Positions 544 through 20,000 of a stretch of 20,000 bases of DNA are shown here, piece by piece (positions within the stretch are counted from its first letter, which is position 1; each line of letters begins with the position of its first letter). The position numbers and the translations under genes are program-made. Below the pieces are notes generated by a model. That model did not search any database, was not told the origin of the DNA, and was given only the letters and a program-made list of their open reading frames with translations. This DNA is from an uncultured virus (IMG/VR IMGVR_UViG_3300018478_000073) (taxonomy: Duplodnaviria; Heunggongvirae; Uroviricota; Caudoviricetes), in the IMG/VR virus record IMGVR_UViG_3300018478_000073; one strand, 5' to 3'.

Positions 544-580
544 ATATCTAGGGGGTATTTTTATTCCTCTAGATATTTTT
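544..580 (+). terminator. Intrinsic terminator
   Basis: Stem ATATCTAGGGGG / TCCTCTAGATAT (with G-U pairs) followed by a T-run, just after ORF 151-501. Confidence 0.7.
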
Positions 581-633
581 GTATAAAGATTTCCTAGGAT
601 GCAGTATATTATTACTGAAAGTTGGTGATTAAA

Positions 634-1785
634 ATGTATATAAGGGACAATATACATGGAGATATAGAGTTCAGTCCATCAGAAATTAAGGTTATACAAA
701 GTAAGTATTTCCAGCGTCTAAGAAATATTAAGCAGTTAGCTTTTGCGGATTTTGTATTTCCATCTGCTACGCACACAAGGTTTATACATTCACTTGGAGC
801 AGTAAAATGCGTAACTGATATGTACAATGCAGTATGCAAGAATAATCCGTCATTTTATAGAGATGGTGATTTACCTCTTTTAAGAATGATAGCATTAGTA
901 CATGATATGTGTCATGCACCATTCAGTCATGCAAGCGAGGAGCTTAGTACGATAGAGCATGAGGAGAGGTTAACTCAAGCATTAGAGTTACTCAAGGATG
1001 ATATTGTAATACCTAACGCATATGGTATCAGGTCATGGGAGTTAGTAGACCAAGTGTATCAGGGGTATGGCACAACATACTTAAGAGACAAGCACTTGAT
1101 GACATTACACAATTTCATGGATGGTTTTATAGATGCTGATAAGCTAGATTATCTGGAGAGAGATGCTTTGAATTGTGGTGTAAAGTATGGTACTTTTGAT
1201 AGGTTAGATTTAGTATCAAGTTTAACAGTACACAATGACAACATAGCAATCACATCAGAGGGGGTATCAGCCTTAGAGAGTTTTATACTTGCAAGGTATT
1301 ATATGTTTAAAGAGGTGTATTTCCATCCAGAAGAGCGTATGATGCGTAATCTGTACTGTGAGGAGATGAAAGGTTTATTAAAGGAGGGGGTATTCCCAGA
1401 AGAACCAAAGAAGTTTTTAGCATTAGATGACACAAAGTTCATTCACAGGTTAAAGTGTGTGAAAAGCAATCCATATGTTTTGGTGCTAGATGTTAATTTT
1501 GATTTAGAGTTAAAGAATTACATAGACAGGTATTTATCTGACTATTTAATATGTGATTGCCCTAGAAAGACCTTATTTAGGGCTAGTGACACAGACCAGA
1601 ATATAGATGTAGTAGATACTGTAACAGGTAACGTAAGTTTATGTACAGACTATTCACCGATATTAAAAGGTATAGAGTTCACGAGTATACATAAGTTAAG
1701 ATATTATACAGAACGTGATATTGAGAAAGAAATGCAAAGAGAAATAGGAAAGGTGGTCAAGAGATTTTATGAGAACAAGAGATGA
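634..1785 (+). CDS. HD-domain phosphohydrolase, dNTP triphosphohydrolase family (YwfO/SAMHD1-like)
   Basis: Motifs IRDNIHG, FQRLRNIKQL, FPSATHTRFIHSLG, HDMCHAPFSH, DADKLDYLERD; start placed at ATG 634 after GGTGA (ORF track starts at TTG 622). Confidence 0.92.
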   Translation: MYIRDNIHGDIEFSPSEIKVIQSKYFQRLRNIKQLAFADFVFPSATHTRFIHSLGAVKCVTDMYNAVCKNNPSFYRDGDLPLLRMIALVHDMCHAPFSHASEELSTIEHEERLTQALELLKDDIVIPNAYGIRSWELVDQVYQGYGTTYLRDKHLMTLHNFMDGFIDADKLDYLERDALNCGVKYGTFDRLDLVSSLTVHNDNIAITSEGVSALESFILARYYMFKEVYFHPEERMMRNLYCEEMKGLLKEGVFPEEPKKFLALDDTKFIHRLKCVKSNPYVLVLDVNFDLELKNYIDRYLSDYLICDCPRKTLFRASDTDQNIDVVDTVTGNVSLCTDYSPILKGIEFTSIHKLRYYTERDIEKEMQREIGKVVKRFYENKR

Positions 1786-2281
1786 TAAGTCATTTTGTAA
1801 TCTGCTTGCATGTCAGAGTAATGTAGGGATAAAGAAGTTACCTTATCTGGCGTATTTGATGCAGATATCTGGTTTTGACCTAAGATATCATTATAGTATT
1901 AGACTAGACACTATAAAAAGCCACGGTTTAATAAGTTCTTTAGGAGATTTAGTATCGATGGGGTATGCGACACAGGGGTATGAACTAACGGAGGCAGGAG
2001 AGCAGGAGCTTAGTACTTATTGTATTACGAATGAAGAGGATACTTTATGTGATAAGATTATGTTTTATGTTAGTGAGTTAAGTCATTCTCAGTTATATTT
2101 AATTTGTGTAACCGATATGATGTTGCAGGATTCTCTAAGAAGAGGTGGCTACAAATCACTCCAGAATGATAGAGAAAACATTGAGGATACAGTAAAGGGG
2201 TTATGTAGTGCCTATACACCAGATGATTTTAATACAGCCGTAGGTATTTTAAGAGAGTTAAGAAAAGGAGGAGATTTATAA
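1769..2281 (+). CDS. YwgA-like winged-helix protein, probable partner of the HD hydrolase
   Basis: GIKKLPYLAYL...YELTEAGEQEL resembles B. subtilis YwgA (GRKKLQK..Y ... Y.LTEAG); overlaps the HD gene, as in ywfO-ywgA synteny. Confidence 0.6.
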   Translation: MRTRDDKSFCNLLACQSNVGIKKLPYLAYLMQISGFDLRYHYSIRLDTIKSHGLISSLGDLVSMGYATQGYELTEAGEQELSTYCITNEEDTLCDKIMFYVSELSHSQLYLICVTDMMLQDSLRRGGYKSLQNDRENIEDTVKGLCSAYTPDDFNTAVGILRELRKGGDL

Positions 2282-2644
2282 ATGCGAAAAAAGGTATTGA
2301 TTTGCGTAGCTTCAGCAGTTCTGCTTGTGGGGGTATTTAGTGCAACATATGAAGTGAGGGTGCATCAGTTAAACGTTGAGGATAAGAAGCAGTCTATGAA
2401 TACTGAGTATGTTGAGGAAATCGATAAATTAAAAATAGAGGAAATCAATGTAGTAAAAGACGATAAGGAGTATACAGACATTAAGGACTTAAATGGTGTT
2501 GAGGCAGGTACTACTGTTGATTGTCACATTAAGTTAGCTAGTGGTGAGGAAAAGGACGTAGAGGGGTATATTTCTTATGGAGACCATACAGATGCTGTTT
2601 ACAATGGTGCTGTTGTAAAGATTACACTAGAAAGGAACAAGTAA
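2282..2644 (+). CDS. Hypothetical exported or membrane-anchored protein
   Basis: MRKK plus hydrophobic N-terminal segment; SD AGGAGG. Confidence 0.75.
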   Translation: MRKKVLICVASAVLLVGVFSATYEVRVHQLNVEDKKQSMNTEYVEEIDKLKIEEINVVKDDKEYTDIKDLNGVEAGTTVDCHIKLASGEEKDVEGYISYGDHTDAVYNGAVVKITLERNK

Positions 2645-2657
2645 GGGGGTAGTTAGT

Positions 2658-2870
2658 ATGCCAGAGGTTGGTGATATTATTCGATGCATTAGTGGCAGAA
2701 AAATTGGTGAAAGACTATTTATTGAGGACATAGTAATTAAGGAAAGTAAGAAGTACTATCAATGCAGTATTATATGCACTGGTTTATTCGATACCGTTTC
2801 GCCAGTATCTAATAAAGTTGAAGTATCTGATGCTGATTTTAGAGAATTTTGTATAGTAGAGGAGAGGTAG
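2658..2870 (+). CDS. Small hypothetical protein, possible KOW/SH3-like fold
   Basis: EVGDIIRCISGRKIG fits the KOW pattern GD.V.V..G...G; SD-like GGGGG at 2645. Confidence 0.6.
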   Translation: MPEVGDIIRCISGRKIGERLFIEDIVIKESKKYYQCSIICTGLFDTVSPVSNKVEVSDADFREFCIVEER

Positions 2871-2872
2871 CA

Positions 2873-3784
2873 ATGTTAGTACAGGAATTTGTCGAAAGAC
2901 AGTTAGACGGGTTTCCAGAACCGTTTTATGACAGTTTGCCAACGGTTTGTTTAGAGGATGGGTGTGGTTATCCTACGGAGATGTTAGAGTCATTAACTCA
3001 GTTAAGATGTAGCAACCCAAGATGTCCATCAAAGGTAGTCCAGAGAATGTCTGCAATGGTAAACAGACTTGGGGTAAAAGACTTTGGTGAGGAGAGAATA
3101 AGAGCATTTGTTAGTGAATGGGGTATTGCGAACCCACTGATATTATTTGCCTACGAGCCATCTGATGGTCAGTTAGCCAGTAATATTTCAATGGACTTAA
3201 GTACAAAAATTTACAATCAGATTAAGGATAAAAAGGACTTTACGTTATCAGAGTATGTAAGAATTGCAAATCTCCCTTACATTCAAACAAGTGCAGGGTA
3301 TATATTTGACAAGTTCGATGATATCAGGGAGGCATACAGGGCAATAGAAGAAGGGGGTATTGATTACATACAAAAATGCTTAGGGGTAAAGAAAGTAAGT
3401 GAGCCATCTTTAATGTCTATCAAGGTATATACATCTTTAATGACATATAAGCATGACTTAATCGATTTAGTAGACCAAGTACACATTATAGAAAGAAACA
3501 AGGGAGACATGTTAAACTACAAGGTATGTGTATCTGGTGATGTGGATTGTGGTTTCAAGACTAAGGCAGAGTTTTATAGAGAAGTTAACTCATTAAGTGA
3601 TAAGCTACATGTAGACTTCTTAGGTTCAGCCACGAAAGAGATTAAGTATCTTGTCTGGGCAGGTAACAGGATTACTAATAAGGTAGTATCTGTACAAAAA
3701 CGTATTGCAAATGGTGAAGATATTAAGATATTAAATGCAAATGAGTTTATTGCAGAAATGAAAGAGAAGTTGGAGGTAGTATAG
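2873..3784 (+). CDS. NAD-dependent DNA ligase C-terminal-only protein (Zn finger, HhH, BRCT); no adenylation or OB domain
   Basis: LPTVC...C...LRCSNPRCP Zn finger, LGVKDFGEE HhH, C-terminal BRCT (VCVSG...SATKEIKYLV...IKILNANEF); ATG 2873 follows GAGGT. Confidence 0.8.
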   Translation: MLVQEFVERQLDGFPEPFYDSLPTVCLEDGCGYPTEMLESLTQLRCSNPRCPSKVVQRMSAMVNRLGVKDFGEERIRAFVSEWGIANPLILFAYEPSDGQLASNISMDLSTKIYNQIKDKKDFTLSEYVRIANLPYIQTSAGYIFDKFDDIREAYRAIEEGGIDYIQKCLGVKKVSEPSLMSIKVYTSLMTYKHDLIDLVDQVHIIERNKGDMLNYKVCVSGDVDCGFKTKAEFYREVNSLSDKLHVDFLGSATKEIKYLVWAGNRITNKVVSVQKRIANGEDIKILNANEFIAEMKEKLEVV

Positions 3785-3787
3785 GTT

Positions 3788-4288: not shown

Positions 4289-4541
4289 TTCTATTCTATT
4301 AGTAGTGGGGGTATTAAGCATTATATTTCCATATAATATAGGATTATCTAGTAATAATATCTATATCTTTTATGTAAGTTCTATATCTAGGAACTTTGTT
4401 TTTGTTTGGTGCATAATGTTTATTTTTCTTGTCATAATACATCTTATTCAGATACGTAAGAAGCAGGAACTTCTAGATAAGCGTACAGATATACTATTGA
4501 TAGTAGTATTTATTATAACAATATTACTATCTATACTTTAA
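4275..4541 (+). CDS. Small membrane protein (about 3 TM helices)
   Basis: Three hydrophobic segments; overlaps previous stop; SD GAGGAG. Confidence 0.7.
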   Translation: MIWIDSILLVVGVLSIIFPYNIGLSSNNIYIFYVSSISRNFVFVWCIMFIFLVIIHLIQIRKKQELLDKRTDILLIVVFIITILLSIL

Positions 4542-4560: not shown

Positions 4561-6429
4561 ATGAAGGTAGCAAAGCAGGCGGTTGCGTATTACTGTTTAA
4601 GAACAGGTAAGGACTGGTCAGAGTTTTTTAACAAACTGGATAAGGCTATTGCAACACCTATGGTTGTAGCTGAGACAGCAGAGGATGATGAAATCTGGCT
4701 GATTAAAAAATTAGTTGAAGTTATTGAGAAGCGTATGACTATAACCGAATTAAAGGCTAATAAGGATGAGGTAAAGAGTGAGTTCGACTTAGATGGAAGA
4801 AAGCAGGCAGGTGAGTTCTTCACGCCGTTAGTATGGTGCAAAGAAGCAAGGGGGTATTTCAATAAATACATTCCTAACTGGAAAGACTACACGGTATGGG
4901 ATATGGCTTGCGGTACTGGTAATCTAATGTTAGAACAGGCAAAAGAGGTAGATAAATTATTTTTATCAACATTGCAGGATACTGATGTACAGTCAGTAGG
5001 TGCTATGGACGAGTATAAGAATGCAACAGTATTTCAGTTAGATTTTCTTGACGGTTTAGACTATGATATAATGAATACAGATTTTCTTGACAAACTTCCG
5101 TATGATTTAAAGGATGCAATAATAAACGATAAACCTCTGATTTTGTATTCAAACCCACCGTATAAGAGTGGTGTAGCAAAGGTAACAGAGGTTGGAAGAT
5201 ACATGTGCAGTATTGGCTTAAACAAGTCAGCCTATGATTTATTCTATCAGTTTTGTTGGAGAATGATGCATTTTGTTGAGTTATTCAACCTAAGAAATAC
5301 ATATTGTTGCTTTTTCGGACCTCTGACATTTTTCTCTGGAAGTAATGCACAGGTATTATTCAAAGAGTTTCAGAAGTGTTTCAGTTTTGTTGATGGTATG
5401 TGTATTTCAGCTCAGGACTTCTCAGGTACATCACAAAGTATTGAATGGGGTATTGGATGTAGTCTGTGGAAAGCAAGAGGTGGATATGTTAACGATGCTA
5501 AGCCAGACCAGGTATTATTGACAAAGAAGATGTTAGCACCAGACGGAAGTGTGGTAACAGGTGAAAAGACACTATATGCAGCACCAAGGCAGAGAATGGA
5601 TGAGTGGTTGCAACCAAAGGATGTATTTTCTTACATTGAGGCACCTCTGGCAACGTCAGCACTAACATTCAGAGGAAGTGAAGAGGGGGTATTAGTAGCA
5701 CCGCAAACTGGAAAGATTGCGGTAGGAGCATTAGGAACTTTAATGTTAGATAGTACATTGGCTAGAGGTAATTCATACTCTGCAATATTATCAGTACCAA
5801 CATCAATAAACTTCGTAAACATTACAAAGGAGAATTTCTGGAGATGTGTAGCAAGCTTTGCATATCGTAATATAGTAAATGCAGGTTGGGCAGACACAAG
5901 AAAGTGGCTATCAGCACCAGACGAAACTGTTGATGGATATGATACATGGGTTAAGAATTGCTTGCCTATCTTTTTATTCGAGTTAAAGAGTATGCAGTCT
6001 GGAATAAGAGGTGTTAAATGGCAAGGAGAAACTATTGATGTGACAAATAAGTTATTCCCAGTATCGGAGGCTGAAGTAAGAGAGTACTGCCACGATGAAG
6101 ATATTCTTAAAGACCTTGATAAGTATGGATTGCATAATGATTTTATACTTGAATGTATCGAGGAGTCAAAGAGCGTATGGTTGCCAGAGGTAGCGGACTT
6201 ATTCAACTGGTGCAAACAGTATATTTTAAATTCTTACGATAAGAGAAAGGATTTGGGTTATGCAGGGCGTACAAAATCATGTGACGCAGGTCTTGCACAG
6301 TTAAGGTCTGGTATTTTTACAACAGAGGATAATCAAGAGTTATTCAAGAAGTTGGGGGTAGCTAGAAATGCCTTAAATAAGGATTTAGGTAGGTTTGGAT
6401 TCTTAAGTGAGGTAGACAGCAATAATTAG
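4561..6429 (+). CDS. N6-adenine DNA methyltransferase (gamma class, Type IIG-like) with probable C-terminal specificity region and no evident nuclease
   Basis: Motif X GEFFTP, motif I VWDMACGTGNL, motif IV NPPY; SD AGGAGG. Confidence 0.88.
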   Translation: MKVAKQAVAYYCLRTGKDWSEFFNKLDKAIATPMVVAETAEDDEIWLIKKLVEVIEKRMTITELKANKDEVKSEFDLDGRKQAGEFFTPLVWCKEARGYFNKYIPNWKDYTVWDMACGTGNLMLEQAKEVDKLFLSTLQDTDVQSVGAMDEYKNATVFQLDFLDGLDYDIMNTDFLDKLPYDLKDAIINDKPLILYSNPPYKSGVAKVTEVGRYMCSIGLNKSAYDLFYQFCWRMMHFVELFNLRNTYCCFFGPLTFFSGSNAQVLFKEFQKCFSFVDGMCISAQDFSGTSQSIEWGIGCSLWKARGGYVNDAKPDQVLLTKKMLAPDGSVVTGEKTLYAAPRQRMDEWLQPKDVFSYIEAPLATSALTFRGSEEGVLVAPQTGKIAVGALGTLMLDSTLARGNSYSAILSVPTSINFVNITKENFWRCVASFAYRNIVNAGWADTRKWLSAPDETVDGYDTWVKNCLPIFLFELKSMQSGIRGVKWQGETIDVTNKLFPVSEAEVREYCHDEDILKDLDKYGLHNDFILECIEESKSVWLPEVADLFNWCKQYILNSYDKRKDLGYAGRTKSCDAGLAQLRSGIFTTEDNQELFKKLGVARNALNKDLGRFGFLSEVDSNN

Positions 6430-6696: not shown

Positions 6697-7323
6697 ATGT
6701 TTAAAAAAGTGTACATGAATAGCATGTTTAAGTGCCTAAGAAAAATTACAAAGAATACCAAGAGGTATGGTATTACGGAGGGTACGATTCTGAATATGCT
6801 GTTAGCACAGCATCACCTAGAGGGGGTAGAGGATAAGACGGAAAGTCAGAAGAAAGACTTAAGTTTATTCAGTAAGTTTGTTGAGGAAAATATTGATAAG
6901 GTAACTGATTACAAGAAAAAATTTAATCTTATTGATAGAGTGCAGTTAGTATTAAAAAGAGCAGTTCCGATTGCGTGTATTCACTTTTTAAGATTAACAT
7001 TGATTGGTCAGGGTATCATATTACCATTCTATGTCAATGCTTTGTTGTTAGGTATTCTTGCATACCTGTACATAACTGCCTTACTGGGGGTACTATTTAC
7101 ATTAGTACCAGATGTAGTGGACTTGCCTTTGCAGTTACCATGTATGGACAAGGGGGTAAAAATCAAGTCTATGAATATGTTAGGTTTGTGCAATAAGGAT
7201 TACTACATTGAAAAGGCAGAGTCATTAGGTGATGATGATTTGTTGTCAGCATTAAGAGATAGTGGTAAGACAGACTTAGTAAGATACCTTGCATACATTA
7301 AATTAAGCGAGATGGAGGATTAA
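6697..7323 (+). CDS. Hypothetical membrane protein (about 2 TM helices)
   Basis: SD AAGGAG; central hydrophobic hairpin. Confidence 0.75.
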   Translation: MFKKVYMNSMFKCLRKITKNTKRYGITEGTILNMLLAQHHLEGVEDKTESQKKDLSLFSKFVEENIDKVTDYKKKFNLIDRVQLVLKRAVPIACIHFLRLTLIGQGIILPFYVNALLLGILAYLYITALLGVLFTLVPDVVDLPLQLPCMDKGVKIKSMNMLGLCNKDYYIEKAESLGDDDLLSALRDSGKTDLVRYLAYIKLSEMED

Positions 7324-7326
7324 GTT

Positions 7327-7821
7327 GTGTATCTTACGTTCAATGAGAATGACCTTATTTCATTAGTGAGGTATGGTGAGTGCAAGTCATTTGTGAGTAC
7401 TGGGTACTTGAAGTTATGTTGTTATCTTGTAAGAGATGAAAGTCTTATAAGTGAGGAGAATAAGAACTATGTAAATTCTGTATTAAACAGTAAGTCATTA
7501 AAGGTTGTAAAAGATGAGGCGTACTTCGCAAGTGTACGGGATATGGTTAAAAGATATATCTTTTTTAGTATTTTGTTTTTAGTTTTGGTGTTATCTTTAC
7601 TTAAGGTAACTACGTGTGGTGTTTTATGGTTACAGGCGTTAGGTTATATTTGCTTGGCAATGTCTGCATTTGTATCATTTAGGTACGTATATAATCTGCT
7701 AGTTATGCACAGTGTTCCAGTAGTATTAGGGGGTAGGTTTGCTACAGCTCTATGTAAGAAAATATTATTTAGGGATACATTGCTCACTATCTTAGAATTG
7801 ACAATGATAAGGGAAAATTAG
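7327..7821 (+). CDS. Hypothetical membrane protein (about 2 TM helices)
   Basis: GTG start after GGAGG; two hydrophobic segments. Confidence 0.7.
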   Translation: MYLTFNENDLISLVRYGECKSFVSTGYLKLCCYLVRDESLISEENKNYVNSVLNSKSLKVVKDEAYFASVRDMVKRYIFFSILFLVLVLSLLKVTTCGVLWLQALGYICLAMSAFVSFRYVYNLLVMHSVPVVLGGRFATALCKKILFRDTLLTILELTMIREN

Positions 7822-7822: not shown

Positions 7823-8833
7823 ATGCTTAGAGATATTGATAAAAGGGATTTTGAGGTAGTAATACTTCAATCTCCCTCTGAAAAGTTAAAGATGTATGTT
7901 AGGGATAAGTATAAGAGCAAGTACAAGATTACACAGGATTCTCTAATAGAGGTAAATACAACAAAAGATATCAAGAAAGTAAAAGAGGTATTAGGTTTAA
8001 TGCCACCATTTTCTGACTGTTGGTTGGTTACAGTAAATTTAGAGAAGGTATCCTTAAAAGATTTATCTGGTATTATTAATCAAAGTTCTACTTGTGTGTT
8101 TTTATGCACTTCTGAGAAGTACAGAACATTCAAAGATTTTAAGGAAAGGGTAAAGAAGTTAAACAGTTGCTTAGACTTATACATAACATACTTAAGGAGA
8201 CCAGATTTTGTATACTTGTATGACGCATTAGTACCAGAAGAAAATAGGATGAGCAAGGCATTGTTTGACTATTTTGTTCAGAGCTACTCAGGAGATATTG
8301 AGTCAGTATTTGACCTTTTCATAGCAATGAATGGGGGTACTAAGATAGAAAAACGCAAGGATATTGCGGATATATGTGGTATAGGTGGCTTGACTATTGA
8401 GTCATTTATTTTTAGCCTTTTGAAAGATGCTCCAACAACTGAGAAAGGCTTAAAGAAAGTAATGCAAAATAGGATAAAAGCTGGTCTAGAGTTAAGTGAG
8501 GTATACAATTTTGATACCTTATATAACTTTATGAGTAATAGCTTAAATAATTTAGTGCAGATAAAGCTACTAAAAGATACAGGTGTTATATATAAGACAA
8601 TAAGAAATTTACCAGATGGCTACGAGCAGTCTAAGTTAGCAAGGTATCAAAAGTATATGTACAGTTTAAGTGAGATACCTCTGTCTAGGTTTTTAAGACT
8701 TGCAGATTGTATGGGTAAAAACCGTTGGAGAAGTAATAGCGACTTTTTAAATTTTGTATACAGGTACTATTTACGATATTTAACTGACGGAACTGTAAAT
8801 TTAAAAGAGGTGAAGAAAAATGTTGTTAGTTAA
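7823..8833 (+). CDS. DNA polymerase III delta subunit-like (HolA-like) clamp-loader protein
   Basis: 336 aa, typical of HolA; MPPFSDCWLVTV matches the HolA P.FS..RLV.V pattern; no Walker A; helical C-terminal collar-like region. Confidence 0.6.
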   Translation: MLRDIDKRDFEVVILQSPSEKLKMYVRDKYKSKYKITQDSLIEVNTTKDIKKVKEVLGLMPPFSDCWLVTVNLEKVSLKDLSGIINQSSTCVFLCTSEKYRTFKDFKERVKKLNSCLDLYITYLRRPDFVYLYDALVPEENRMSKALFDYFVQSYSGDIESVFDLFIAMNGGTKIEKRKDIADICGIGGLTIESFIFSLLKDAPTTEKGLKKVMQNRIKAGLELSEVYNFDTLYNFMSNSLNNLVQIKLLKDTGVIYKTIRNLPDGYEQSKLARYQKYMYSLSEIPLSRFLRLADCMGKNRWRSNSDFLNFVYRYYLRYLTDGTVNLKEVKKNVVS

Positions 8834-9479
8834 GACAGGGTATGAGACAGCTAAGAGATTTGAGTTCTCTGGTGTAAAAACTAAATTTGGCACAAAGAAA
8901 CACGCAGTTTTATTTAAGGTATACTGCGATGATACAGATGTAAAAGAGTGTATTGATTTATACAGGTCAAGTAAGAATGTGATTATGTTAGAGTATCAGG
9001 GTACATTATCTACGTTAGGTATGCAGGATTTGTCTAATGTCTACATTACAAGGGTATACGATTTTGGCACGAATATATCAGAGGATGATGTCAAGGGGGT
9101 AGTTGAAGAGCTTATTGATGGTTTGGTAGGAGTCATAAGATTGCCACAAGAGTATAGTGATATGAGATTCATTTACAATATGTCACAAAAGTATAGTAAT
9201 ATCAGATTCTGTGGTGGAAGTATATTTTGTATCGATGGTTGCAATGTTGGTTGCTGTGGAAGAGATATCTTGGATAAGGATAATGTAAAGTATGATGACA
9301 CTGAGTATTTCCACGAGGGGTGTTGCTGTGCATTAGAAACAGTTCCAGACACTGAGGTAATCTTGGAAGAGGGAGTAGTCAAGAAGTCACAGAGTAGTTC
9401 AGGTAAAACATCTGGCGGTAAGAAGAAGGTTGCACTATTTAAAAACTTGTTATATAGTGGGGGTACTCATGAATTATAA
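8820..9479 (+). CDS. Cysteine-rich hypothetical protein
   Basis: FCGG..FCIDGCNVGCCG and EGCCC clusters; SD GAGGTG. Confidence 0.75.
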   Translation: MLLVKTGYETAKRFEFSGVKTKFGTKKHAVLFKVYCDDTDVKECIDLYRSSKNVIMLEYQGTLSTLGMQDLSNVYITRVYDFGTNISEDDVKGVVEELIDGLVGVIRLPQEYSDMRFIYNMSQKYSNIRFCGGSIFCIDGCNVGCCGRDILDKDNVKYDDTEYFHEGCCCALETVPDTEVILEEGVVKKSQSSSGKTSGGKKKVALFKNLLYSGGTHEL

Positions 9480-9876
9480 TATAACTGGTAATCAGGTATT
9501 AATACTTGTTTGTTGTATAATAGGTATTTTACTTGCATTAAGTTTTTTAAAAAAGGTACTAAGGCTTATAGTAGTGGGGGTACTAGTAGTATTAATGTTA
9601 GTCATGTTTTTCATGTCTGAAAATGCATCAAGTATTGATTTGAGCAAGGTCAACATAGGTAAATATGAGAGCCTTGCATCCAATTCAAGTAGTATTAAGA
9701 TAGAGAATGGTACGCTTAAGATTAAGATACAAGATACTTTGGTAGATGTGTGTGCAATTACGAATATCAAAATATTGTCTGATGAACACTGTAGGTTATC
9801 AATAGATGGTGCTAGTTACGAAATCCACGATAGTGATATTGTAAGTTTGCTAAAGTCTTTGAGAAGCTACAGTTAA
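9469..9876 (+). CDS. Hypothetical membrane protein (N-terminal TM helices)
   Basis: ATG 9469 preferred because GGGGG at 9459 can act as SD; two N-terminal hydrophobic segments. Confidence 0.7.
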   Translation: MNYNITGNQVLILVCCIIGILLALSFLKKVLRLIVVGVLVVLMLVMFFMSENASSIDLSKVNIGKYESLASNSSSIKIENGTLKIKIQDTLVDVCAITNIKILSDEHCRLSIDGASYEIHDSDIVSLLKSLRSYS

Positions 9877-12114: not shown

Positions 12115-15100
12115 TGTTAAGAGGTAAAATAAAGTATAAAGGTTATTCTTATGATGTTTATGGTAATGATACGATAAGCTCAATGAACTTAAGATTAGAG
12201 TCAGCAGTGTTTGACTCTATTTTATTTATGGCGGATGAGAATCTTGTGGAACATGGAAATGAGCTTTGGGAGCGAGGGTTAAAGATAGGCGTATCTAAGG
12301 TAGATATCGAAACAGGAAATTACATAGATTCTGTAACAGGTAAGTTGGTTAAGTATCCAGTTAATGTTGATTTCTTTTGCAGATTAGGTGCGGTATTAAG
12401 GTATGCAAAGGCACATTGTTATACAAAAAATATAAATGGGTTTACAGGGTTACAGTTAGCTTCTGGAGAATTCTCACCAGAGTCTGAGACAGAGTATATT
12501 ATCCCATTTGAGGACAGGTCTGATGGTGAGGAACTTGCTAGAGTAAAAATCCGATTAGGGGGTATCGTGAGTATTCAGTTGAAAACTGAAGATATCGAGG
12601 TAGACCTAAAGGAAGACCCATTTTCTCGTAATAACCTTATGCCTACATTTAAGAATGGTGTATCAAAGGGGTTTGCTTTTATCGAGGAGTACTTAGGTTT
12701 TAAGATTAAACAACAGGAGGTATTTCACAGCAATCAGTTAAACGGTATGTACAGTAGTATTGCTGAGGTAGCTGAGGCGCATCCAGAGAAAGAGTTTTCA
12801 TGGTTACTTGATAAGAACTATAAAATCGTAACAGATGAAATGTTGGATGAGGTATGTGATTACATATATGGTTTTGATGGCTACGTGTATTATGATACTG
12901 AGACTACAGGGTTAAATATTAACTTCCGCTCGAGAACTGGACAAGCTGACCAATGCGTAGGTGTCATCTTATCAGTAATTGATGGTGAGTCATTTTTCTT
13001 TCCAATGCAGATGAAGTCAATTAAGAATTTGTGTGGTGGTGACCATTTTTACTTTATGGAACATTACATGAGACGTATTCTTGAGCAGAAGCAGTTAGTA
13101 GCGCACAATGCACCATTCGACTGGAAGGTATCGCATATTTACGACATTAACGCAAATTTTGTACATGATACATTGGCATTATTTAAGTTAACACTAGGTC
13201 AGGAGACATTTGATTTACCTGTTAATTTGAAGTATTTAGCATCAGTATACTTAAGAAGAGATTCTTTGGAGTTAGACGACCTTGTAGTTGATGATTCATG
13301 GGGAGAATCGGATATTAAGTTCTGGGACTTACCAGAGGAGCTTGTAAGGTATTATGCCTGTGCAGATACTGATAATACGAGAGGTCTCTTAATGTATGCG
13401 GAGCAGTCAAATTTATTAATAAGGTTTAATGCAACGAAGGTATATGAGATAGAGTTGGCATTTGGGTTTGCAGTAGCATACCAAGAGTTCTACGGTCACT
13501 TATTTGATATAAACAAGGTAGCAACTCTCCGTGAAGAAATTCAGAGAAACATTGATACACTTTACTCAAGTATGAAGAATATTATAGGTCACGACTTCAA
13601 CCCAAATTCTTCACCTCAGTTGATTAAGATTCTTTATACAGAATTGGGTATTCCAGTTCAGATTAGCAGGAAAACAAATAGACCAACAACTGATAAAGAG
13701 ACTTTAAAGCATCTAGCTGAGTTAACTAATATCGAAGGTGATACGATGTATCCTTTCTGTAAGTTACTGCTTGATTACCGAGTAGAGGAGGGGGTACGTA
13801 AGATTATAGACAAGTTCCCAGAACTTTCAACTCAGGATGGTTATTTGTTTAGTGGTGTAAAACAGTACGGAACAACTACAGGTAGGGTATCAATTAAAGA
13901 GCCTAACTATCAGAGTTATAACAATCCAGTTAAGAAGAATATTATACCGAGACCTGGGTTTTATATGTTTGATACAGACTATTCCTCTGTAGAATATCGA
14001 GTTTTGGGTAATATGAGTGGAAATAAAATGATTAAGGAGAACTTTTACGACCCAGACTTTGATTATCATGCATATCAGGCATCACGTATGTACAGGATAC
14101 CTTACTCAAGTGTTACGAGTCCGTTAAGAAAAGCAGCCAAAGGTATTAACTTCGGATTACCATATGGTATGGGAGATGAATCTTTGGGGGTACGAATCTT
14201 TGGAGAGAAGTCCGATGAAAATACAAGAAAAGCGTCAGCATTGAGAAGAAGTTATTTTAAAGGTCAGGAAGATATCCAGACTTTCTTCGAGGTAGCAAGA
14301 GAAGGTGGAGCAAAGAATGGTTACACAGAGACGTACTTTGGGCGAAGAAGATACTATGATAAGACAAAGTTTACAATTAATGGTATCAAAAGGCAGGCAG
14401 GAAATCATGTAATACAGGGTACAGCAGCTGATATTTACAAGTTAGCAGTTGGTAGGGTATTTAAGAGAATATGCAAAGAGGGTTGGCTTGGTAAGGTGTT
14501 ACTGACTGGGTTTATTCACGATGAGTTATTAGGTGAGGTTTCTTGTGAAATAGACCCGATGGTATGGTTAAAGACTTTACGTGAAGAGTTTGAGGTAAAA
14601 ATTGTAGATGACAATGGAAATCCTTGGTGTCCACTGTATATGGGGTTTGGATGGGGTAGAAATTGGTATGAAGCAAAGTCTACTGAAATTCCTATCAAGT
14701 TACAGTGGGAATTTGTTGAGAAGTATGGAGAATCAGGCTTTCCAGACTGGGATGCAGATATAGATAAGTTCTGTGATGCAGTACCCGATATGATTAGGGT
14801 ATTTGAGATTAAAGATTGTGCAAAACAGCTATTATCGGAAGAGGCACAGGGTAAGGAGATTAAGCCAGCCTTAAACTCTGCGATTCTGGGGGTATTAAAG
14901 GAAGATGCTAAGCATTACAAAGATTGTATTAATGACAGGTCTTTACTTGATACATACCATATTAAAGGATTTATGCACGATAGCGAAGGGGGTATTTTAG
15001 ATGAGATACCAAAGACTACGGATACGCAGTTAGCTATTGATTACTTTTGTATGCTACACGAAGTAGACAGAAGTAAAATAGATGTAAAAAGTATTGAGGA

Positions 15101-15458
15101 TGCAGATATAGCCACCCAAGATAGTGACTCTGAATTAGAGATTGATTCAGAAAACAGGGAAGAGTTAAGTATAGAACAAATTAAGATGTTAGCTGTTGAG
15201 AACACAATTAAAACGTTGGGGGTATATGTAGACACTGATGCAAAGCAGGTGAAATGTCTTTTATTACCTAATAACTGGTTAGGTCTTGTCAAGAATTGCA
15301 CACAGAGTTATGGGACAAGTAGTAGTGCATACAGACTTTACTTTGTTGATATGGATAGTAAGAAATTATTTGAAACGCAGACAGAAGTAGCATCTGAAAA
15401 CATGAATGCACTTCAGAATATTTACATCAAGTATATGAGCATGATGAGAAGTAACTAG
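12114..15458 (+). CDS. polA: Family A DNA polymerase with 3'-5' exonuclease and long N- and C-terminal extensions
   Basis: ExoI DTETTGL, ExoII HNAPFD, ExoIII YACAD; TTTGRVS..EPNYQ; motif A DYSSVEYR; motif B RKAAKGINFGLPYG; NHVIQGTAADI; motif C HDE. Confidence 0.95.
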   Translation: MLRGKIKYKGYSYDVYGNDTISSMNLRLESAVFDSILFMADENLVEHGNELWERGLKIGVSKVDIETGNYIDSVTGKLVKYPVNVDFFCRLGAVLRYAKAHCYTKNINGFTGLQLASGEFSPESETEYIIPFEDRSDGEELARVKIRLGGIVSIQLKTEDIEVDLKEDPFSRNNLMPTFKNGVSKGFAFIEEYLGFKIKQQEVFHSNQLNGMYSSIAEVAEAHPEKEFSWLLDKNYKIVTDEMLDEVCDYIYGFDGYVYYDTETTGLNINFRSRTGQADQCVGVILSVIDGESFFFPMQMKSIKNLCGGDHFYFMEHYMRRILEQKQLVAHNAPFDWKVSHIYDINANFVHDTLALFKLTLGQETFDLPVNLKYLASVYLRRDSLELDDLVVDDSWGESDIKFWDLPEELVRYYACADTDNTRGLLMYAEQSNLLIRFNATKVYEIELAFGFAVAYQEFYGHLFDINKVATLREEIQRNIDTLYSSMKNIIGHDFNPNSSPQLIKILYTELGIPVQISRKTNRPTTDKETLKHLAELTNIEGDTMYPFCKLLLDYRVEEGVRKIIDKFPELSTQDGYLFSGVKQYGTTTGRVSIKEPNYQSYNNPVKKNIIPRPGFYMFDTDYSSVEYRVLGNMSGNKMIKENFYDPDFDYHAYQASRMYRIPYSSVTSPLRKAAKGINFGLPYGMGDESLGVRIFGEKSDENTRKASALRRSYFKGQEDIQTFFEVAREGGAKNGYTETYFGRRRYYDKTKFTINGIKRQAGNHVIQGTAADIYKLAVGRVFKRICKEGWLGKVLLTGFIHDELLGEVSCEIDPMVWLKTLREEFEVKIVDDNGNPWCPLYMGFGWGRNWYEAKSTEIPIKLQWEFVEKYGESGFPDWDADIDKFCDAVPDMIRVFEIKDCAKQLLSEEAQGKEIKPALNSAILGVLKEDAKHYKDCINDRSLLDTYHIKGFMHDSEGGILDEIPKTTDTQLAIDYFCMLHEVDRSKIDVKSIEDADIATQDSDSELEIDSENREELSIEQIKMLAVENTIKTLGVYVDTDAKQVKCLLLPNNWLGLVKNCTQSYGTSSSAYRLYFVDMDSKKLFETQTEVASENMNALQNIYIKYMSMMRSN

Positions 15459-15854: not shown

Positions 15855-16376
15855 TTGAGGGTATGTGAGTTAAAAAGTATATTTGGTTTGGATATTAAGT
15901 TAGCCAAGCAGGGTGCGAGAAAGTATAAGTTAACAACATATATGTGTATGCTACTTGATGCATTGATAGTTATTACTTGTGCTATGAGTTTGTTTAAGGT
16001 TGGCAACGCAGTATTGTTTTTAGAGATATCGACTGTCGTAGCAATAGGTATTAACATGTTAGCCTTTGCTATTGTAGGTGGAGATAATAGGGAGGCATAC
16101 ATAGCGTACAGTAAATTGCGCAATAAGGGGGTATCAGAAAAGAGGTACTCGTTAGATGAGAAGGCACTTTACTCTGTATTATTTTGTTCAGGGTATAAAA
16201 GAATAAAGAAAAACTCTACAGCAGATGTTTATAAGGAAGCAATAAATAGTGCTTGTATGCAGAGTTTAAAGTACTCAAGAAGAATTTTAAAAAATTTATC
16301 AAAGTATGAGTCAGAGAATGGTAATATGACAATTTTTACATGTAAGGGGTATTATATTGATATTAAGGAGGATTAA
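15855..16376 (+). CDS. Hypothetical membrane protein (about 2 TM helices)
   Basis: TTG start after GGAGGT; two hydrophobic segments; basic C-terminal region. Confidence 0.7.
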   Translation: MRVCELKSIFGLDIKLAKQGARKYKLTTYMCMLLDALIVITCAMSLFKVGNAVLFLEISTVVAIGINMLAFAIVGGDNREAYIAYSKLRNKGVSEKRYSLDEKALYSVLFCSGYKRIKKNSTADVYKEAINSACMQSLKYSRRILKNLSKYESENGNMTIFTCKGYYIDIKED

Positions 16377-16378
16377 TA

Positions 16379-17323
16379 ATGAGTAATATTATTTCAGAGC
16401 AGGATTTAAAGAATAAGTACAATGGAGATTGTATTTCTGGTGTAATCTTAATGGGAGAGGTAGTTAGAGGTACAACAAAAAATGGAAAGCCGTTCTATTC
16501 TGGTACTCTCACCTCAGGAGAACAGGTGTCATACAAGGTATGGGATTCCACATTAGCTTTTGAGACATTAAGACAGGCAGATTTAAGTGGACATGTTGTA
16601 GATATCGAGGGTACGTGGAATGAGTATCAAGGTACATGGAGCATTATAATTAACAGAATTGTAGATTTAGGAGATGGCACTTCATCAGGTGTGGGGGTAT
16701 CTGATTTCTTAAAGAGTAGATATGACATTCCGTCATACTGGGCAGGTTTGCTAGCATTAATGAAACAGAATCTAACTGATAACGGGTACAAGGTAGCAGA
16801 TAAGATTTTGTTCAGTAATCCAGATGTAGCAGAACAGTTTAAGTATGCTTTTGCTGCTAAGAGTCATCATGATAACTGCAAAGGTGGTTTACTTGCACAT
16901 ACATACAAAATTTGTTATTTAGCGAATGTGTTTGTTAACTTATATCCAAGTATGGTAGATAAGGATTTATTATACTTAGGTTGTCTTTTACATGATATTG
17001 GAAAAGTAAGAGAAATGGATATGGGGGTATATCAGGAGGTATCAAAGGTAACACACAGGTTCTTAGGTATCGAGATGCTTGATAAGGACTTAATCGTATC
17101 TATTTACGGCGAGAGTTTCTATTATGAGCTTGTAAGTATTCTTCTTCAGCATCACGGAGAGTATGCAGACCCATGTAAGACAGTTTCTTCTTACATTGTT
17201 CATTTGATTGATTGTATAGAGTCAAGATTCATGGGATTGGTACAGAACATGGAGTTATCAGATAACTGTGGAAAAGTTAATGTAGATGGAAGTTATCTGA
17301 GTTACCCAACATTACAGGAGTAA
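16379..17323 (+). CDS. yhaM: YhaM/Cbf1-like 3'-5' exonuclease (OB fold plus HD domain)
   Basis: N-terminal OB fold (TKNGKPF...KVWD...V.IEG...EYQG), AAKSHH...GGLLAHT, LLHDIGK, HHGE. Confidence 0.88.
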   Translation: MSNIISEQDLKNKYNGDCISGVILMGEVVRGTTKNGKPFYSGTLTSGEQVSYKVWDSTLAFETLRQADLSGHVVDIEGTWNEYQGTWSIIINRIVDLGDGTSSGVGVSDFLKSRYDIPSYWAGLLALMKQNLTDNGYKVADKILFSNPDVAEQFKYAFAAKSHHDNCKGGLLAHTYKICYLANVFVNLYPSMVDKDLLYLGCLLHDIGKVREMDMGVYQEVSKVTHRFLGIEMLDKDLIVSIYGESFYYELVSILLQHHGEYADPCKTVSSYIVHLIDCIESRFMGLVQNMELSDNCGKVNVDGSYLSYPTLQE

Positions 17324-17396
17324 TAATAAAGAAATACATTCAAAATCTGGAGGTTTGTATTAATTCCGCATAAGAGCTGGTAGGGGGTATTAGATT

Positions 17397-18248: not shown

Positions 18249-18272
18249 GGAGGTGAGTAAAACCTCCTTTTT
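18247..18272 (+). terminator. Intrinsic terminator-like hairpin
   Basis: AAGGAGGT / ACCTCCTT stem, 7-nt loop, T-run. Confidence 0.7.
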
Positions 18273-18289
18273 ATATAGGGGGTAGTATT

Positions 18290-19588
18290 ATGAAGAGATG
18301 GATAACATGTTTATTAGTATGTTTAGTGTTATCTTTAAACATATTAGGTACAGTATATGCAGAGCCAAAACCACCAACAACGTCAGAAGGAAATTCTAGT
18401 GGTGGGGGTAGTAGTGAAAAGGAAGATTCATCAGGTGGAAAGTTAAGTAAGGAGGAGCAACAAGCCTTACTTGATAAGATAAATGGCAGTATGAGTAGAA
18501 GCGCAAGTTTAGATAATCTGCTATCAATATATTCCGCATTAAAGTCAAGTGGTATTGATGATGAGCATTGTTCAGCGATGTTAGTAAATGGAATGAGGGA
18601 GTCATCACTAGTACCAGATGCAGGACAAGACGGTGGTGGTGCAATAGGAATATGGCAGTGGGACGGTGGAAGAAGGAATACTCTATCTCAGTTTTCACAG
18701 GAAATGGGAGATACTGCTTACAATATTAAGGGGTACTCAGTAGGAGGTGTTGCAACACAGGTAGCCTTTATGTTAAAGGAACTGAAGGGTGGACAATGGA
18801 TAGAAAATTCACCAAAGGGTTTATATGGAAGTGTAAACTGGGGTACTGCAAGCAGTGGTTCTAATGGTTTCGATTTCAACTCGACAATGACTATAGATGA
18901 GTGGTATGCAAACAAGGATACAGGAGTTTTATCCATTTACTTCACAGCTTGTTTTGAGAGATGTGCGTATGGTATTGACATTTACAATGAAGGAGCTATG
19001 CAGTCAAAAGATATGTACAAGCTATTGACAGGTAGTGAAGTGACTGGGAGTACTAATGAGGAGTTAGATAAAGAGTTAGGTACAGCTCTAGTTAAGTCAG
19101 GTTTATGGTCAGAGGAGCAGTTTGTAAGTTGGAAAGAAATGACAGATTGTGTGTTAGAATTTTCTGATATATCGGAGATGAAGCAAGCTGATATAGCAAA
19201 TGTAGAGTTATGGAAGAAAGATATACAACATAATAATCAAGATACATTTCTAGTAAGATTAGGAAGAAAAACATGTATGCTGTTAGGGATACTATTTGAG
19301 GTATGGATGTTATTCATATATTTGTCCTATTGGTTTGATAGGATAAACAATTTTATTGAGGTAGACCTATTAAAAGTTATGACATTTGGAAGATTACGGA
19401 TATCACCTACAGAGGATGAATGTACATTTAGGGTTATGGATAAAGGTTCGGAGGTAAGGACAGTTAATCACAAGACTATACTTTGTATATGTATAGTAGG
19501 CTTATTCTTTGGAGCTTTCATAATAAGTGGGGGTATGTTCGAGTTGCTAAACAAGCTAGTCACAAAAGTTTTATCCTTTATAGGGTAA
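18290..19588 (+). CDS. Secreted cell-wall hydrolase with phage-tail-lysozyme (Phage_lysozyme2-type) domain and C-terminal TM helices
   Basis: Signal peptide ending VYA; AMLVNGMRESSL.P...Q.GG.AIGIWQWDGGRR..L...Q..FM.KEL...F...FER; two C-terminal hydrophobic segments. Confidence 0.82.
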   Translation: MKRWITCLLVCLVLSLNILGTVYAEPKPPTTSEGNSSGGGSSEKEDSSGGKLSKEEQQALLDKINGSMSRSASLDNLLSIYSALKSSGIDDEHCSAMLVNGMRESSLVPDAGQDGGGAIGIWQWDGGRRNTLSQFSQEMGDTAYNIKGYSVGGVATQVAFMLKELKGGQWIENSPKGLYGSVNWGTASSGSNGFDFNSTMTIDEWYANKDTGVLSIYFTACFERCAYGIDIYNEGAMQSKDMYKLLTGSEVTGSTNEELDKELGTALVKSGLWSEEQFVSWKEMTDCVLEFSDISEMKQADIANVELWKKDIQHNNQDTFLVRLGRKTCMLLGILFEVWMLFIYLSYWFDRINNFIEVDLLKVMTFGRLRISPTEDECTFRVMDKGSEVRTVNHKTILCICIVGLFFGAFIISGGMFELLNKLVTKVLSFIG

Positions 19589-19605
19589 GACATAATTACT
19601 ATAAG

Positions 19606-19652
19606 CAGTGTTTTATGAATACTATTAAAGATATAGTATTTGTAAGATACTG
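19606..19652 (+). other. 20-bp intergenic RNA hairpin
   Basis: CAGTGTTTTATGAATACTAT pairs fully with ATAGTATTTGTAAGATACTG if four G-U pairs are allowed. Confidence 0.7.
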
Positions 19653-19711
19653 GTTAATCATTGCGAAATCTATCGTTAGTACAATTTAGTAAGGAAATGG
19701 AGGTATTGTTT

Positions 19712-20000
19712 TTGAAGTTACAAAAAATCAAAAGATTGTTTGCATTTACTCTAGCAGTGTCGATGGTTACACCGACAGTAGCATATGCAGATAGTGGAGT
19801 CACAGAAAACAAGGGGGTAGTTGATTCTGAGAGTACAGATGGTGGTAATGAAGATGTACCAGAGGTAAGTCCAGATGAACCAGAGGTAAATCCAGATGTA
19901 CCAGGGGTAAATCCAGACGAACCAGAGGTAAAGCCAGATGTACCAGAAGTAAATCCAGATGTTCCAGACAAACCAACAGAGCCAGAGGTAGAACCAGAGA
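19712..20000 (+). CDS. Secreted or surface protein with Pro/Asp/Glu-rich repeats (partial, runs off the window; missing from the ORF track)
   Basis: SD GGAGGT at 19699, TTG 19712; MKLQKIKRLFAFTLAVSMVTPTVAYA signal peptide, then DSGV...DVPEVSPDEPEVNP...; no stop before 20000. Confidence 0.85.
   Translation, partial: MKLQKIKRLFAFTLAVSMVTPTVAYADSGVTENKGVVDSESTDGGNEDVPEVSPDEPEVNPDVPGVNPDEPEVKPDVPEVNPDVPDKPTEPEVEPE
19853..19966 (+). repeat. 21-bp coding tandem repeat, about 5.4 copies, encoding D(V/E)PEVNP
   Basis: Units of GATG(T/A)ACCAGAGGTAAATCCA starting at 19853, 19874, 19895, 19916, 19937 and a partial unit at 19958. Confidence 0.9.

Follow-up and report, generated by a model that had tools for sequence, protein, structure and literature searches.

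Why should one strand of a DNA carry the same short word every half kilobase and the other strand never carry it? The question arises in the window, by which we mean the whole 20,000-nt stretch analysed here (IMG/VR record IMGVR_UViG_3300018478_000073, filed as an uncultured virus), where 36 copies of GGGGGTA lie on the + strand and none on the − strand, each copy exactly where a sequence-only reading of this DNA had placed it. As that reading had also noticed, every run of five G is a copy of the word: all 36 are followed by TA and preceded by A (21) or T (15), never by C or G, and there is no run of six. The next base is T in 19 copies, G in 10, C in 6 and A in 1. No G run on the − strand is longer than three. 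A further 25 flanking positions show no evident preference, so that the copies are not pieces of a longer repeat, and folding of 87-nt windows round the word gave no hairpin signal (−5.4 vs −5.0 kcal/mol for random windows); the word was unpaired somewhat more often in these folds (0.67 vs 0.55), as a C-poor strand would give likewise. We argue below that the word is a signal of the element itself, a relative of the giant Bacillus thuringiensis plasmid pXO16, and that it may mark the start sites of that element's own primase.

In principle the word could be a by-product, whether of base composition, of codon use or of faulty assembly. The G+C content of the window is 35.6%, its GC skew (excess of G over C on the + strand) is +0.33 overall and +0.25 to +0.37 across all 2-kb bins, and this skew alone makes the reverse complement rare (about 0.05 copies of TACCCCC are expected from base counts), which speaks for such an origin of the strand bias. 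The number of copies speaks against it. Dinucleotide-preserving shuffles of the window (n = 200) gave a mean of 1.62 copies (standard deviation 1.21, maximum 6), codon-order shuffles gave 1.5 ± 1.2, and the Markov expectation was 2.2 at second order and 8.4 at third order, the third-order model partly absorbing the motif itself. The excess thus persists under all these models, among them Markov and codon-shuffled ones as the sequence-only reading had proposed, at 36 copies against 1.5 to 8.4 expected. Its view that protein sequence is not the cause likewise held up, since shuffling synonymous codons within genes (1000 runs) left 3.3 ± 1.8 copies (maximum 10) against 32 genic ones, an enrichment of about 10-fold. 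Amino-acid contexts able to spell the word synonymously are used in 21 of 40 cases for x-Gly-Val, 10 of 15 for Gly-Gly-(A-start codon) and 1 of 4 for (xGG)-Gly-Tyr, and GGG is otherwise a rare glycine codon in the window (70 of 397). All three frames occur, as quoted earlier for the copies at 1260, 4850 and 8333, and their use is uneven: xxG-GGG-GTA 21, GGG-GGT-Axx 10 and xGG-GGG-TAx 1, with the other four copies intergenic. Some sites, among them those at 12558 and 14988, are made by an amino-acid change relative to the closest relatives (Table 1). Word densities in coding and non-coding DNA are alike in three large relatives introduced below, G001, G405 and G406 (0.77 vs 0.98, 1.09 vs 1.11 and 1.00 vs 0.94 per kb); a density count in the window gave 3.89 copies per kb for non-coding DNA (5 in 1,285 bp) and 1.66 per kb for coding DNA (31 in 18,715 bp).

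Assembly or polishing error, for which the earlier reading had also wanted a check, is excluded because two independent assemblies from other studies carry GGGGGTA (38 copies in locus L012 and 21 in L013, mostly at other positions), and the finished plasmid pXO16 carries the word in a spelling one G shorter. Orthologous proteins in differently spelled clades, moreover, do without GGGGGTA. We consider an origin as a by-product refuted and give it practically no credence. Taken together, the excess over synonymous shuffles, the use of over half of the possible synonymous sites and the like densities inside and outside genes show that the word is a real signal acting at the nucleic-acid level. 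It does not serve in general as the Shine-Dalgarno sequence: only four of the 36 copies lie 5–10 nt before a start codon and act as ribosome-binding sites too, the same four that had been singled out from the sequence (Table 1), and most of the remaining window genes have GGAGG-type ribosome sites.

Individual sites turn over while their density and even spacing are kept. The window shares 4 of 24 aligned sites with L012 and 6 of 18 with L013, some neighbouring copies being offset by 1–2 bases, and the mean gap is 550 bp in the window, 624 and 642 bp in L012 and L013, and 531 bp in pXO16. Conservation among homologues, which had been suggested as a check, is therefore found for density and mostly not for position. 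Spacing was under-dispersed in 11 of 11 loci tested (coefficient of variation 0.43–0.81 vs about 0.97 for random placement; p from <0.0002 to 0.06). In the window p is 0.0008, and no gap exceeds 1232 bp, where a maximum of 2231 is expected; the gaps of pXO16 (n = 657) include 31 of less than 100 bp vs 112 expected and 13 of more than 1500 bp vs 37 expected. Turnover, even spacing and a density independent of coding imply a function that needs a site at least every 1–2 kb, on one strand, anywhere. We propose that selection has placed the word at intervals of about 0.5 kb wherever the coding sequence permits, and now and then at the price of an amino-acid change. Mean spacing across loci is 0.4–0.9 kb, and the size range of Okazaki fragments covers these values.

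The element that bears the word belongs with pXO16 (pAM65-52-2-350K, NZ_CP013277.1, a conjugative plasmid of 349,600 bp from B. thuringiensis serovar israelensis; the available text of PMC6199540 equates the two names), which was found by a protein search of a plasmid collection. Of the window's proteins, nine have a match in pXO16, seven of which keep their order round the polymerase, and the window shares with pXO16-like elements the replication module, genes on one strand and the G-rich strand: it is the replication module of a pXO16 relative, part of a pXO16-type giant plasmid. A metagenome scan returned 55 related loci, polymerase homologues lie on contigs of 200–400 kb, and scans of viral contigs returned three large records, G001 (179,785 bp, with terminal repeats), G405 (128,669 bp) and G406 (140,467 bp). 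Near-identical DNA to the window was found neither in phage and plasmid collections nor in a single-protein scan of viral contigs; a bovine gut metagenome is the possible source of the window's element. The family consists of elements of 130 to 400 kb that encode a replisome of their own and have all their genes on one strand. All credible genes of the window are on the + strand, as are 163 of 163 open reading frames (ORFs) of at least 100 amino acids on one strand of G001; skew is positive throughout G001 and all round pXO16; and no real minus-strand gene was found in G001, G405, G406 or pXO16, the few minus ORFs being antisense shadows of plus genes. For pXO16, a single orientation of the coding sequences is also reported in the accessible part of PMC6199540.

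The word varies within this family in a regular way. In a survey of the window and the loci of 43 relatives, each at least 9 kb long (12 shorter loci were left out), the most over-represented 7-mer was a polar word holding GGTA or GTATC in all loci but L027 and L037 (42 of 44), built as G(2-5)TA with a flank. The window, L012 and L013 spell it GGGGGTA, the L015 clade GGGGTAG, two clades GGG(G)TATC, L022, L026 and L032 GGGTATT, L039 and L063 GGGGTAC(T), and the L041 clade GGTATCGC; reverse-strand counts of these lineage words are 0 to 2. Each lineage prefers its own length for G runs followed by TA (five in the window, 36/36; four in L015, 30/38; three in L022, 123/166), and the word keeps a constant length of seven to eight letters round a fixed GGTA. 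Taken together, the 44 loci hold 3103 forward copies of GGGTA, where 1401 are expected, and 239 reverse copies, where 320 are expected. On a polymerase tree (FastTree, 587 columns, 44 rows, loci <9 kb left out) the spellings form clades, GnTATC appearing in two distant ones; as far as this tree can tell, spelling follows the phylogeny of the element. L027, the sister of L030 and nested in the GGGGTAG clade, has GGGGTA only 7 times and a weaker polar word, GAGGGT, 17 times forward and 0 in reverse; its word may be in the course of changing.

Mapping over whole replicons was done on relatives (G001 and pXO16). GGGGTATC occurs 64 times forward and 1 in reverse in G001, and AGGGGTA 460 and 2 times in pXO16; the corresponding counts are 141 and 1 for GGGGTAT in G405 and 139 and 7 for GGGTATT in G406. 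The shorter GGGGTA of pXO16, 657 forward and 5 in reverse, is spread all round the circle, so that the strand bias reported for the window holds replicon-wide in its relatives. Round the GGGG-T-A of pXO16 the 5' base is A 460, T 167, C 23 or G 7 times and the 3' base G 307, T 247, A 83 or C 20 times.

The three plasmids that share their B. thuringiensis strain with pXO16 and were counted (360, 235 and 128 kb) have forward/reverse GGGGTA counts of 55/54, 15/21 and 19/15, no higher than a reversed-word control, against 657/5 in pXO16. Among 401 genomes sampled from the class of an Oscillospiraceae metagenome-assembled genome, AGGGGGTA reaches at most 147 copies per genome, about 0.08 vs 1.05 per kb in the window; the counts are mostly below control and none of the genomes is enriched. 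Because co-resident plasmids are at background, the 401 genomes are not enriched and the spellings track the polymerase tree, the signal belongs to the element and is unlikely to be a Chi site or FtsK-orienting polar sequence (KOPS) of the host, which would mark every replicon; its reader should therefore be encoded by the element. The sequence-only reading had called the word an element-specific orientation signal, a description that the polar enrichment in 42 of 44 loci and in pXO16, beside co-resident plasmids at background, bears out.

What, then, might read it? A word so strictly polar must be read either on a single strand or by a process that runs one way. A G-rich, gene-bearing strand would, by the usual rule, have the leading-strand sequence and so be the lagging-strand template, and it is on such a strand that the word sits in the window, G001 and pXO16; the direction of replication that we adopt is suggested by GC skew and by the orientation of the genes. 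Our preferred reading, to which we commit ourselves tentatively and with rather less than even confidence, is that the word is the start site, on the lagging-strand template, of the family's own split DnaG-type primase. A DnaB-like helicase would run 5' to 3' along the G-rich + strand and leave it single-stranded. A separate zinc-ribbon subunit would recognise the 3' part of the word (T-A and the next base), and a TOPRIM subunit would start opposite T with ATP, leaving the A uncopied as a 'cryptic' base; copying of the G run would then give a short, stable pppA-C(n) primer, to be extended by the family A polymerase. A start word of 7–8 letters would arise by chance about once per 10 kb at this base composition, which would be too rare, so selection would write sites in. 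Should the transferred strand be the G-rich one, these sites could also be used to synthesise its complement after transfer.

Several observations are consistent with priming. The core G-T-A, invariant in 36 of 36 window sites and retained as GGTA or GTATC in the top 7-mer across the family, is compatible in sequence with a primase site. T7 primase has full sites such as GGGTC, which give ACCC-type primers. The family encodes a free DnaG-type zinc ribbon (PF01807, E 1e-12; PDB 1D0Q, E 1.5e-6) and a free DNAG_N/TOPRIM catalytic protein (Toprim_2, E 1.5e-5; PDB 5VAZ, E 8.5e-4), annotated in pXO16 as a 'toprim domain-containing protein', whose catalytic E and DxD are invariant in 9 lineages. Both parts are present in G001, G405, G406 and pXO16, so that the family has a cognate primase to offer, and G001 and pXO16 also encode a DnaB-like helicase. 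According to the available text of PMC2978363, DnaG and T7 primases start at the middle base of a trinucleotide whose 3' base is cryptic, Firmicute DnaG sites are CTA/TTA, mutation H33A in the T7 zinc domain changes GTC to GTA/GTG, and the zinc domain of a primase can act in trans. The same excerpted source places the specificity of S. aureus and E. coli DnaG in the two residues before H-C-F-G-C; in the family these are I-F in pXO16, R-Y or H-Y in the G001/G405 clade and L-Y in G406. The zinc-ribbon residues thus appear to differ between spelling classes, a weak, suggestive correspondence that covers three classes and is confounded with phylogeny; the word-based protein search behind it reached the G001 clade only.

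Other findings weigh against this reading. The window's own 20 kb yielded no primase gene; a tblastn search recovered the catalytic subunit from 22 of 58 sequences, among which the window clade is not represented; and the zinc-ribbon (CHC2) pattern occurs in 0 of the polA-centred loci. The primer, primase binding and the direction of replication are inferred rather than observed. Recognition by known DnaG and T7 primases covers three bases rather than seven or eight, and T7's own primase sites are neither polar nor strongly enriched in its genome (GGGTC 39/55, TGGTC 79/62, GTGTC 43/42 on the two strands). Simple priming has no ready explanation for the exact length of the G run, which is preceded by a further G in 0 window sites and in 7 of 657 pXO16 sites, and does not account for the preference for G or T after TA. 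Finally, every relative has its genes along one strand only, so that the observed polarity is also what any role in transcription or at the RNA level would produce.

Such a role, in which the word would act in the non-template strand and in every mRNA to recruit or pause RNA polymerase in the manner of ops (operon polarity suppressor) and RfaH, or would be bound by ribosomes or an RNA-binding protein, and would so aid expression of a one-way array of 130–350 kb, seems to us unlikely. The genes of the window, G001, G405, G406 and pXO16 do all lie on the word strand, four window copies sit at Shine-Dalgarno positions, and a subset of the word, GGGGGTAG, matches at all but one base the ops core GGCGGTAG as given in the accessible text of PMC5995543; IncX plasmids, as far as the available part of PMC11880322 goes, carry an ops-like site and a plasmid-encoded RfaH. 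An ops site, however, stands once in an operon leader, whereas 32 of the 36 copies here are in genes; GGGTATT and GGTATCGC resemble neither ops nor a Shine-Dalgarno sequence, GGAGG-type sites already serve most window genes, and a NusG-family domain (PF02357) was absent from a six-frame search of G001 and from Pfam scans. The other plasmids of the same host, moreover, share its RNA polymerase and ribosomes, yet lack the word. It is just as improbable, in our estimate, that the word guides conjugative transfer, read on the transferred strand or on duplex DNA by an FtsK/SpoIIIE-like ATPase or another transfer protein, as are KOPS and the SpoIIIE recognition sequences (SRS). These too are G-rich polar 7–8-mers, G001 encodes an FtsK/SpoIIIE-family protein (PF01580, E 3.8e-14; phrog_1358, E 5e-35), and transfer of single-stranded DNA by pXO16 is unusual: in the available portions of PMC6199540 and PMC9673590 it uses a distant relative of type IV secretion and takes about 3.5–4 minutes, and no relaxase or origin of transfer (oriT) is identified. 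The FtsK gamma domain (PF09397), however, was absent from a six-frame search of G001, polarity flips nowhere on the circles of G001 and pXO16, and the word is 10–20 times denser than chromosomal KOPS. The same portions of the two reviews describe mobilisation by pXO16 of oriT-less plasmids and chromosomal DNA, which are word-less (PMC9673590), so that the pump needs no word.

A mark or cut made on one strand, either by the methyltransferase-like protein encoded beside the polymerase acting on the A of GTA or by a nickase, could serve as a self-label or to prime synthesis from nicks. TA is in every spelling, the whole family, pXO16 included, keeps the methyltransferase-like gene, G001 encodes HNH nucleases, and phage T5 and others have one-strand nicks at specific words. 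A modification target, though, need not be 20-fold enriched or evenly spaced, and the alignment of the protein shows no clear hypervariable target-recognition block between spelling classes; we rate this reading as improbable. A still fainter chance attaches to a Chi-like site that tames a helicase-nuclease, the host's AddAB or one encoded by the element, and so protects element DNA. Like Chi, the word is G-rich, 7–8 nt long, widespread and, by the usual rule, part of the leading-strand sequence, and G001 encodes a UvrD-type helicase and SbcCD-like proteins; against this, co-resident plasmids facing the same nuclease are at background and unskewed, the 401 sampled genomes are not enriched, the word is not among the Firmicute Chi sequences listed in the sequence-only reading, and no AddAB/RecBCD-type enzyme was recognised in G001 beyond a weak exonuclease V match (E 3.6e-4). 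Of the options which that reading had left side by side, a primase site fits best; the co-resident plasmids weigh against a Chi or KOPS of the host.

Start sites of a primase encoded by the element might form part of something broader. It is possible, though we hold it as doubtful, that each pXO16-like lineage has a private 'priming code': its own primase word of 7–8 letters every ~0.5 kb on one strand, read by a split primase whose free zinc ribbon co-evolves with it. The word strand would be single-stranded both in one-way replication and in conjugative transfer. If this were true, the replisome would copy its own DNA independently of the host, and at once in a new recipient too, and the spelling would be a replicon identity separating competing lineages. 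A primase of this kind would give a replisome with a long, evolvable start word and possibly a basis for orthogonal replication systems. Whatever reads it, the word is a testable handle on how one-way replicons of 130–400 kb copy and move their DNA, and a simple signature by which to find and sort such elements in metagenomes. pXO16 has been called poorly understood (Makart et al. chose the title 'almost 350 kb of terra incognita' in 2015, as listed in the available part of PMC9673590); it now takes its place in a large family whose members come from gut and environmental sources and are in part filed as viruses. It is cultured and genetically tractable, which makes the mechanism directly testable.

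Table 1. Copies of the word and genes in the window, and split-primase genes of two relatives.
Feature	Coordinates	Strand	Context or match
GGGGGTA	551..557	+	intergenic
GGGGGTA	1260..1266	+	gene 622-1785, GAG GGG GTA
GGGGGTA	1386..1392	+	gene 622-1785, xxG GGG GTA
GGGGGTA	2329..2335	+	gene 2282-2644, xxG GGG GTA
GGGGGTA	2645..2651	+	intergenic; Shine-Dalgarno position, 6 nt before ATG 2658 (70-amino-acid ORF)
GGGGGTA	3353..3359	+	gene 2849-3784, GGG GGT Axx
GGGGGTA	4307..4313	+	gene 4275-4541, xxG GGG GTA
GGGGGTA	4850..4856	+	gene 4561-6429, AGG GGG TAT
GGGGGTA	5685..5691	+	gene 4561-6429; common to L012 and L013
GGGGGTA	6354..6360	+	gene 4561-6429
GGGGGTA	6822..6828	+	gene 6697-7323
GGGGGTA	7086..7092	+	gene 6697-7323
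GGGGGTA	7152..7158	+	gene 6697-7323
GGGGGTA	7729..7735	+	gene 7327-7821, GGG GGT Axx
GGGGGTA	8333..8339	+	gene 7823-8833, GGG GGT ACT; L012 copy offset 2 nt
GGGGGTA	9095..9101	+	gene 8820-9479; common to L013
GGGGGTA	9459..9465	+	end of gene 8820-9479; Shine-Dalgarno position for ATG 9469
GGGGGTA	9576..9582	+	gene 9469-9876
GGGGGTA	10054..10060	+	gene 10016-10603
GGGGGTA	10316..10322	+	gene 10016-10603; common to L013
GGGGGTA	11305..11311	+	gene 10622-11710; L012 copy offset 1 nt
GGGGGTA	11486..11492	+	gene 10622-11710; common to L012
GGGGGTA	12558..12564	+	polA; Gly-Gly-Ile here, Gly-Asn-Ile in L012/L013
GGGGGTA	13790..13796	+	polA; common to L012 and L013
GGGGGTA	14186..14192	+	polA; common to L013
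GGGGGTA	14888..14894	+	polA; common to L012 and L013
GGGGGTA	14988..14994	+	polA; Gly-Gly-Ile here, Gly-Asn-Ile in closest relatives
GGGGGTA	15218..15224	+	polA
GGGGGTA	16127..16133	+	gene 15855-16376
GGGGGTA	16693..16699	+	gene 16379-17323
GGGGGTA	17023..17029	+	gene 16379-17323
GGGGGTA	17383..17389	+	intergenic; Shine-Dalgarno position for TTG 17397
GGGGGTA	18278..18284	+	intergenic; Shine-Dalgarno position for ATG 18290
GGGGGTA	18404..18410	+	gene 18290-19588
GGGGGTA	19529..19535	+	gene 18290-19588
GGGGGTA	19813..19819	+	open frame 19661-19999
NAD-dependent DNA ligase, C-terminal part	2849..3784	+	phrog_3869 E 2.7e-13, profile positions 391-655; 40% identity to pXO16
N6-adenine DNA methyltransferase-like, NPPY motif	4561..6429	+	PF02384 E 1.6e-4; 30% identity over 606 amino acids to pXO16; family-conserved
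DNA polymerase III delta-like clamp-loader subunit	7823..8833	+	structure look-alikes with template-modelling (TM) score 0.67-0.70 (Bacillota delta-subunit clusters); 37% identity to pXO16 109079-110044
family A DNA polymerase, polA, 1114 amino acids	12114..15458	+	PF00476 E 2e-63; 39% identity over 99% of length to pXO16 DNA polymerase
HD-domain protein downstream of polA	16379..17323	+	PF01966 E 4e-9; conserved in all relatives
zinc-ribbon protein, G001	110549-111097		25 kb from TOPRIM gene
TOPRIM protein, G001	136009-136794		25 kb from zinc-ribbon gene
zinc-ribbon protein, pXO16	33667-34269		128 kb from TOPRIM gene
TOPRIM protein, pXO16	162101-162886		128 kb from zinc-ribbon gene

Beyond the genes listed, the window encodes a second HD protein (two in all) and a lysozyme-domain membrane protein; an atlas look-up of gene 10622-11710 gave no usable match. 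The gene at 8820-9479 encodes a conserved 219-amino-acid protein with a dense cysteine cluster (CGGSIFCIDGCNVGCCG ... HEGCCC), without a family match and 29% identical to its pXO16 counterpart. At 19661-19999, running off the end, lies the start of a secreted protein with short proline-/acid-rich repeats (PDVPEVNPDEPEV...), whose antisense frame is a Ser/Gly/Thr-rich shadow ORF. The ligase is apparently split in the family: the window has the C-terminal half, and in G001 the adenylation domain is separate (424 amino acids, L074:16684-17955). An intein-like insertion of ~170 residues with a Cys start interrupts the methyltransferase-like protein of L012 (1640-4024) and L013 (3036-5420) and is absent from the window, and many polymerase homologues (P0042, P0046-P0048 and others) carry intein/LAGLIDADG domains (PF14890, PF14528).

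G001, the IMG/VR record behind L067, is filed as viral and complete with terminal repeats, and G405 and G406 are filed as proviruses. The gene content of the three includes partition, anti-restriction, FtsK-like, CHAP and LPXTG adhesin genes, and they look like pXO16-type plasmids rather than phages. In G001 these are ParM-like and ParB-like partition genes, an ArdC-like anti-restriction protein, a CHAP hydrolase and LPXTG adhesins, beside a replication set of polymerase, DnaB-like helicase, clamp loader (including a polymerase III delta' protein), gyrase, ligase, RNase H, 5'-3' exonuclease and UvrD-type helicase; 107 G001 proteins scanned against PHROGs included none of the head, tail or terminase families. 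The Inocle elements of oral streptococci were considered as relatives and rejected, since they have two replichores and another architecture in the accessible text of PMC12340149.

How does the word compare with known systems? A description of such a signal was not found in the literature on megaplasmids, on GC skew of huge phages or on over-represented primase sites; the available portions of the pXO16 reviews PMC9673590 and PMC6199540 do not mention it, although the original pXO16 sequence paper (Makart et al. 2015, Plasmid 80:8) might. Chi and KOPS/SRS are known polar over-represented oligomers, and primase trinucleotides are known too. The family word differs from these in four ways: it is private to giant one-way plasmids, it occurs about 2 times per kb, it is evenly spaced, and its spelling shifts round a fixed GGTA. 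pXO16 itself is a close parallel, with a polymerase 39% identical, the same gene order, one orientation, a G-rich strand and a spacing of 531 vs 550 bp, and differs in spelling, [A/T]GGGGTA[G/T] with four G against [A/T]GGGGGTA[T/G] in the window. L068, an unrelated IMG/VR record with a polymerase 23% identical, has a word of its own, GGCGTTA, on both strands (20 and 11 copies), in contrast to the strict polarity of the pXO16-family word.

Like Chi, the family word is short, G-rich and polar, lies by the usual rule on the leading-strand sequence, and is kept by density rather than position; Chi, however, is owned by the host and present on all host replicons, whereas the family word is absent from co-resident plasmids and never flips. 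KOPS and SRS are likewise G-rich polar 7–8-mers able to orient a motor, but G001 has no gamma domain, and the family word has no switch at origin or terminus, is far denser and is not host-wide. With ops it shares the non-template strand and, in GGGGGTAG, all but one base of GGCGGTAG; ops, by contrast, is a single leader copy, a NusG paralogue was not found in G001, and the other family spellings are unlike it. Single-strand origins and initiation sites (sso/ssi) are orientation-specific, lie on the displaced or transferred strand and start complementary-strand synthesis, as the word might, but they are single structured elements of 100–300 nt, whereas the word is short, unstructured and repeated hundreds of times. 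An sso is named for pTX14 plasmids in the available text of PMC6199540.

There is also a likeness to the sites of DnaG and T7 primases, which lie on the lagging-strand template and are read with a zinc ribbon, a domain able to work in trans (PMC2978363, available text). In both, if priming is what the family word does, a central T templates the first ATP, the 3' base is left uncopied and the G run gives a C-rich primer (ACCC in T7). DnaG and T7 sites comprise three to five positions, whereas the pXO16-family word has seven to nine informative ones and is 15–25 fold enriched, strictly polar, evenly spaced and lineage-specific, none of which is true of T7's own sites.

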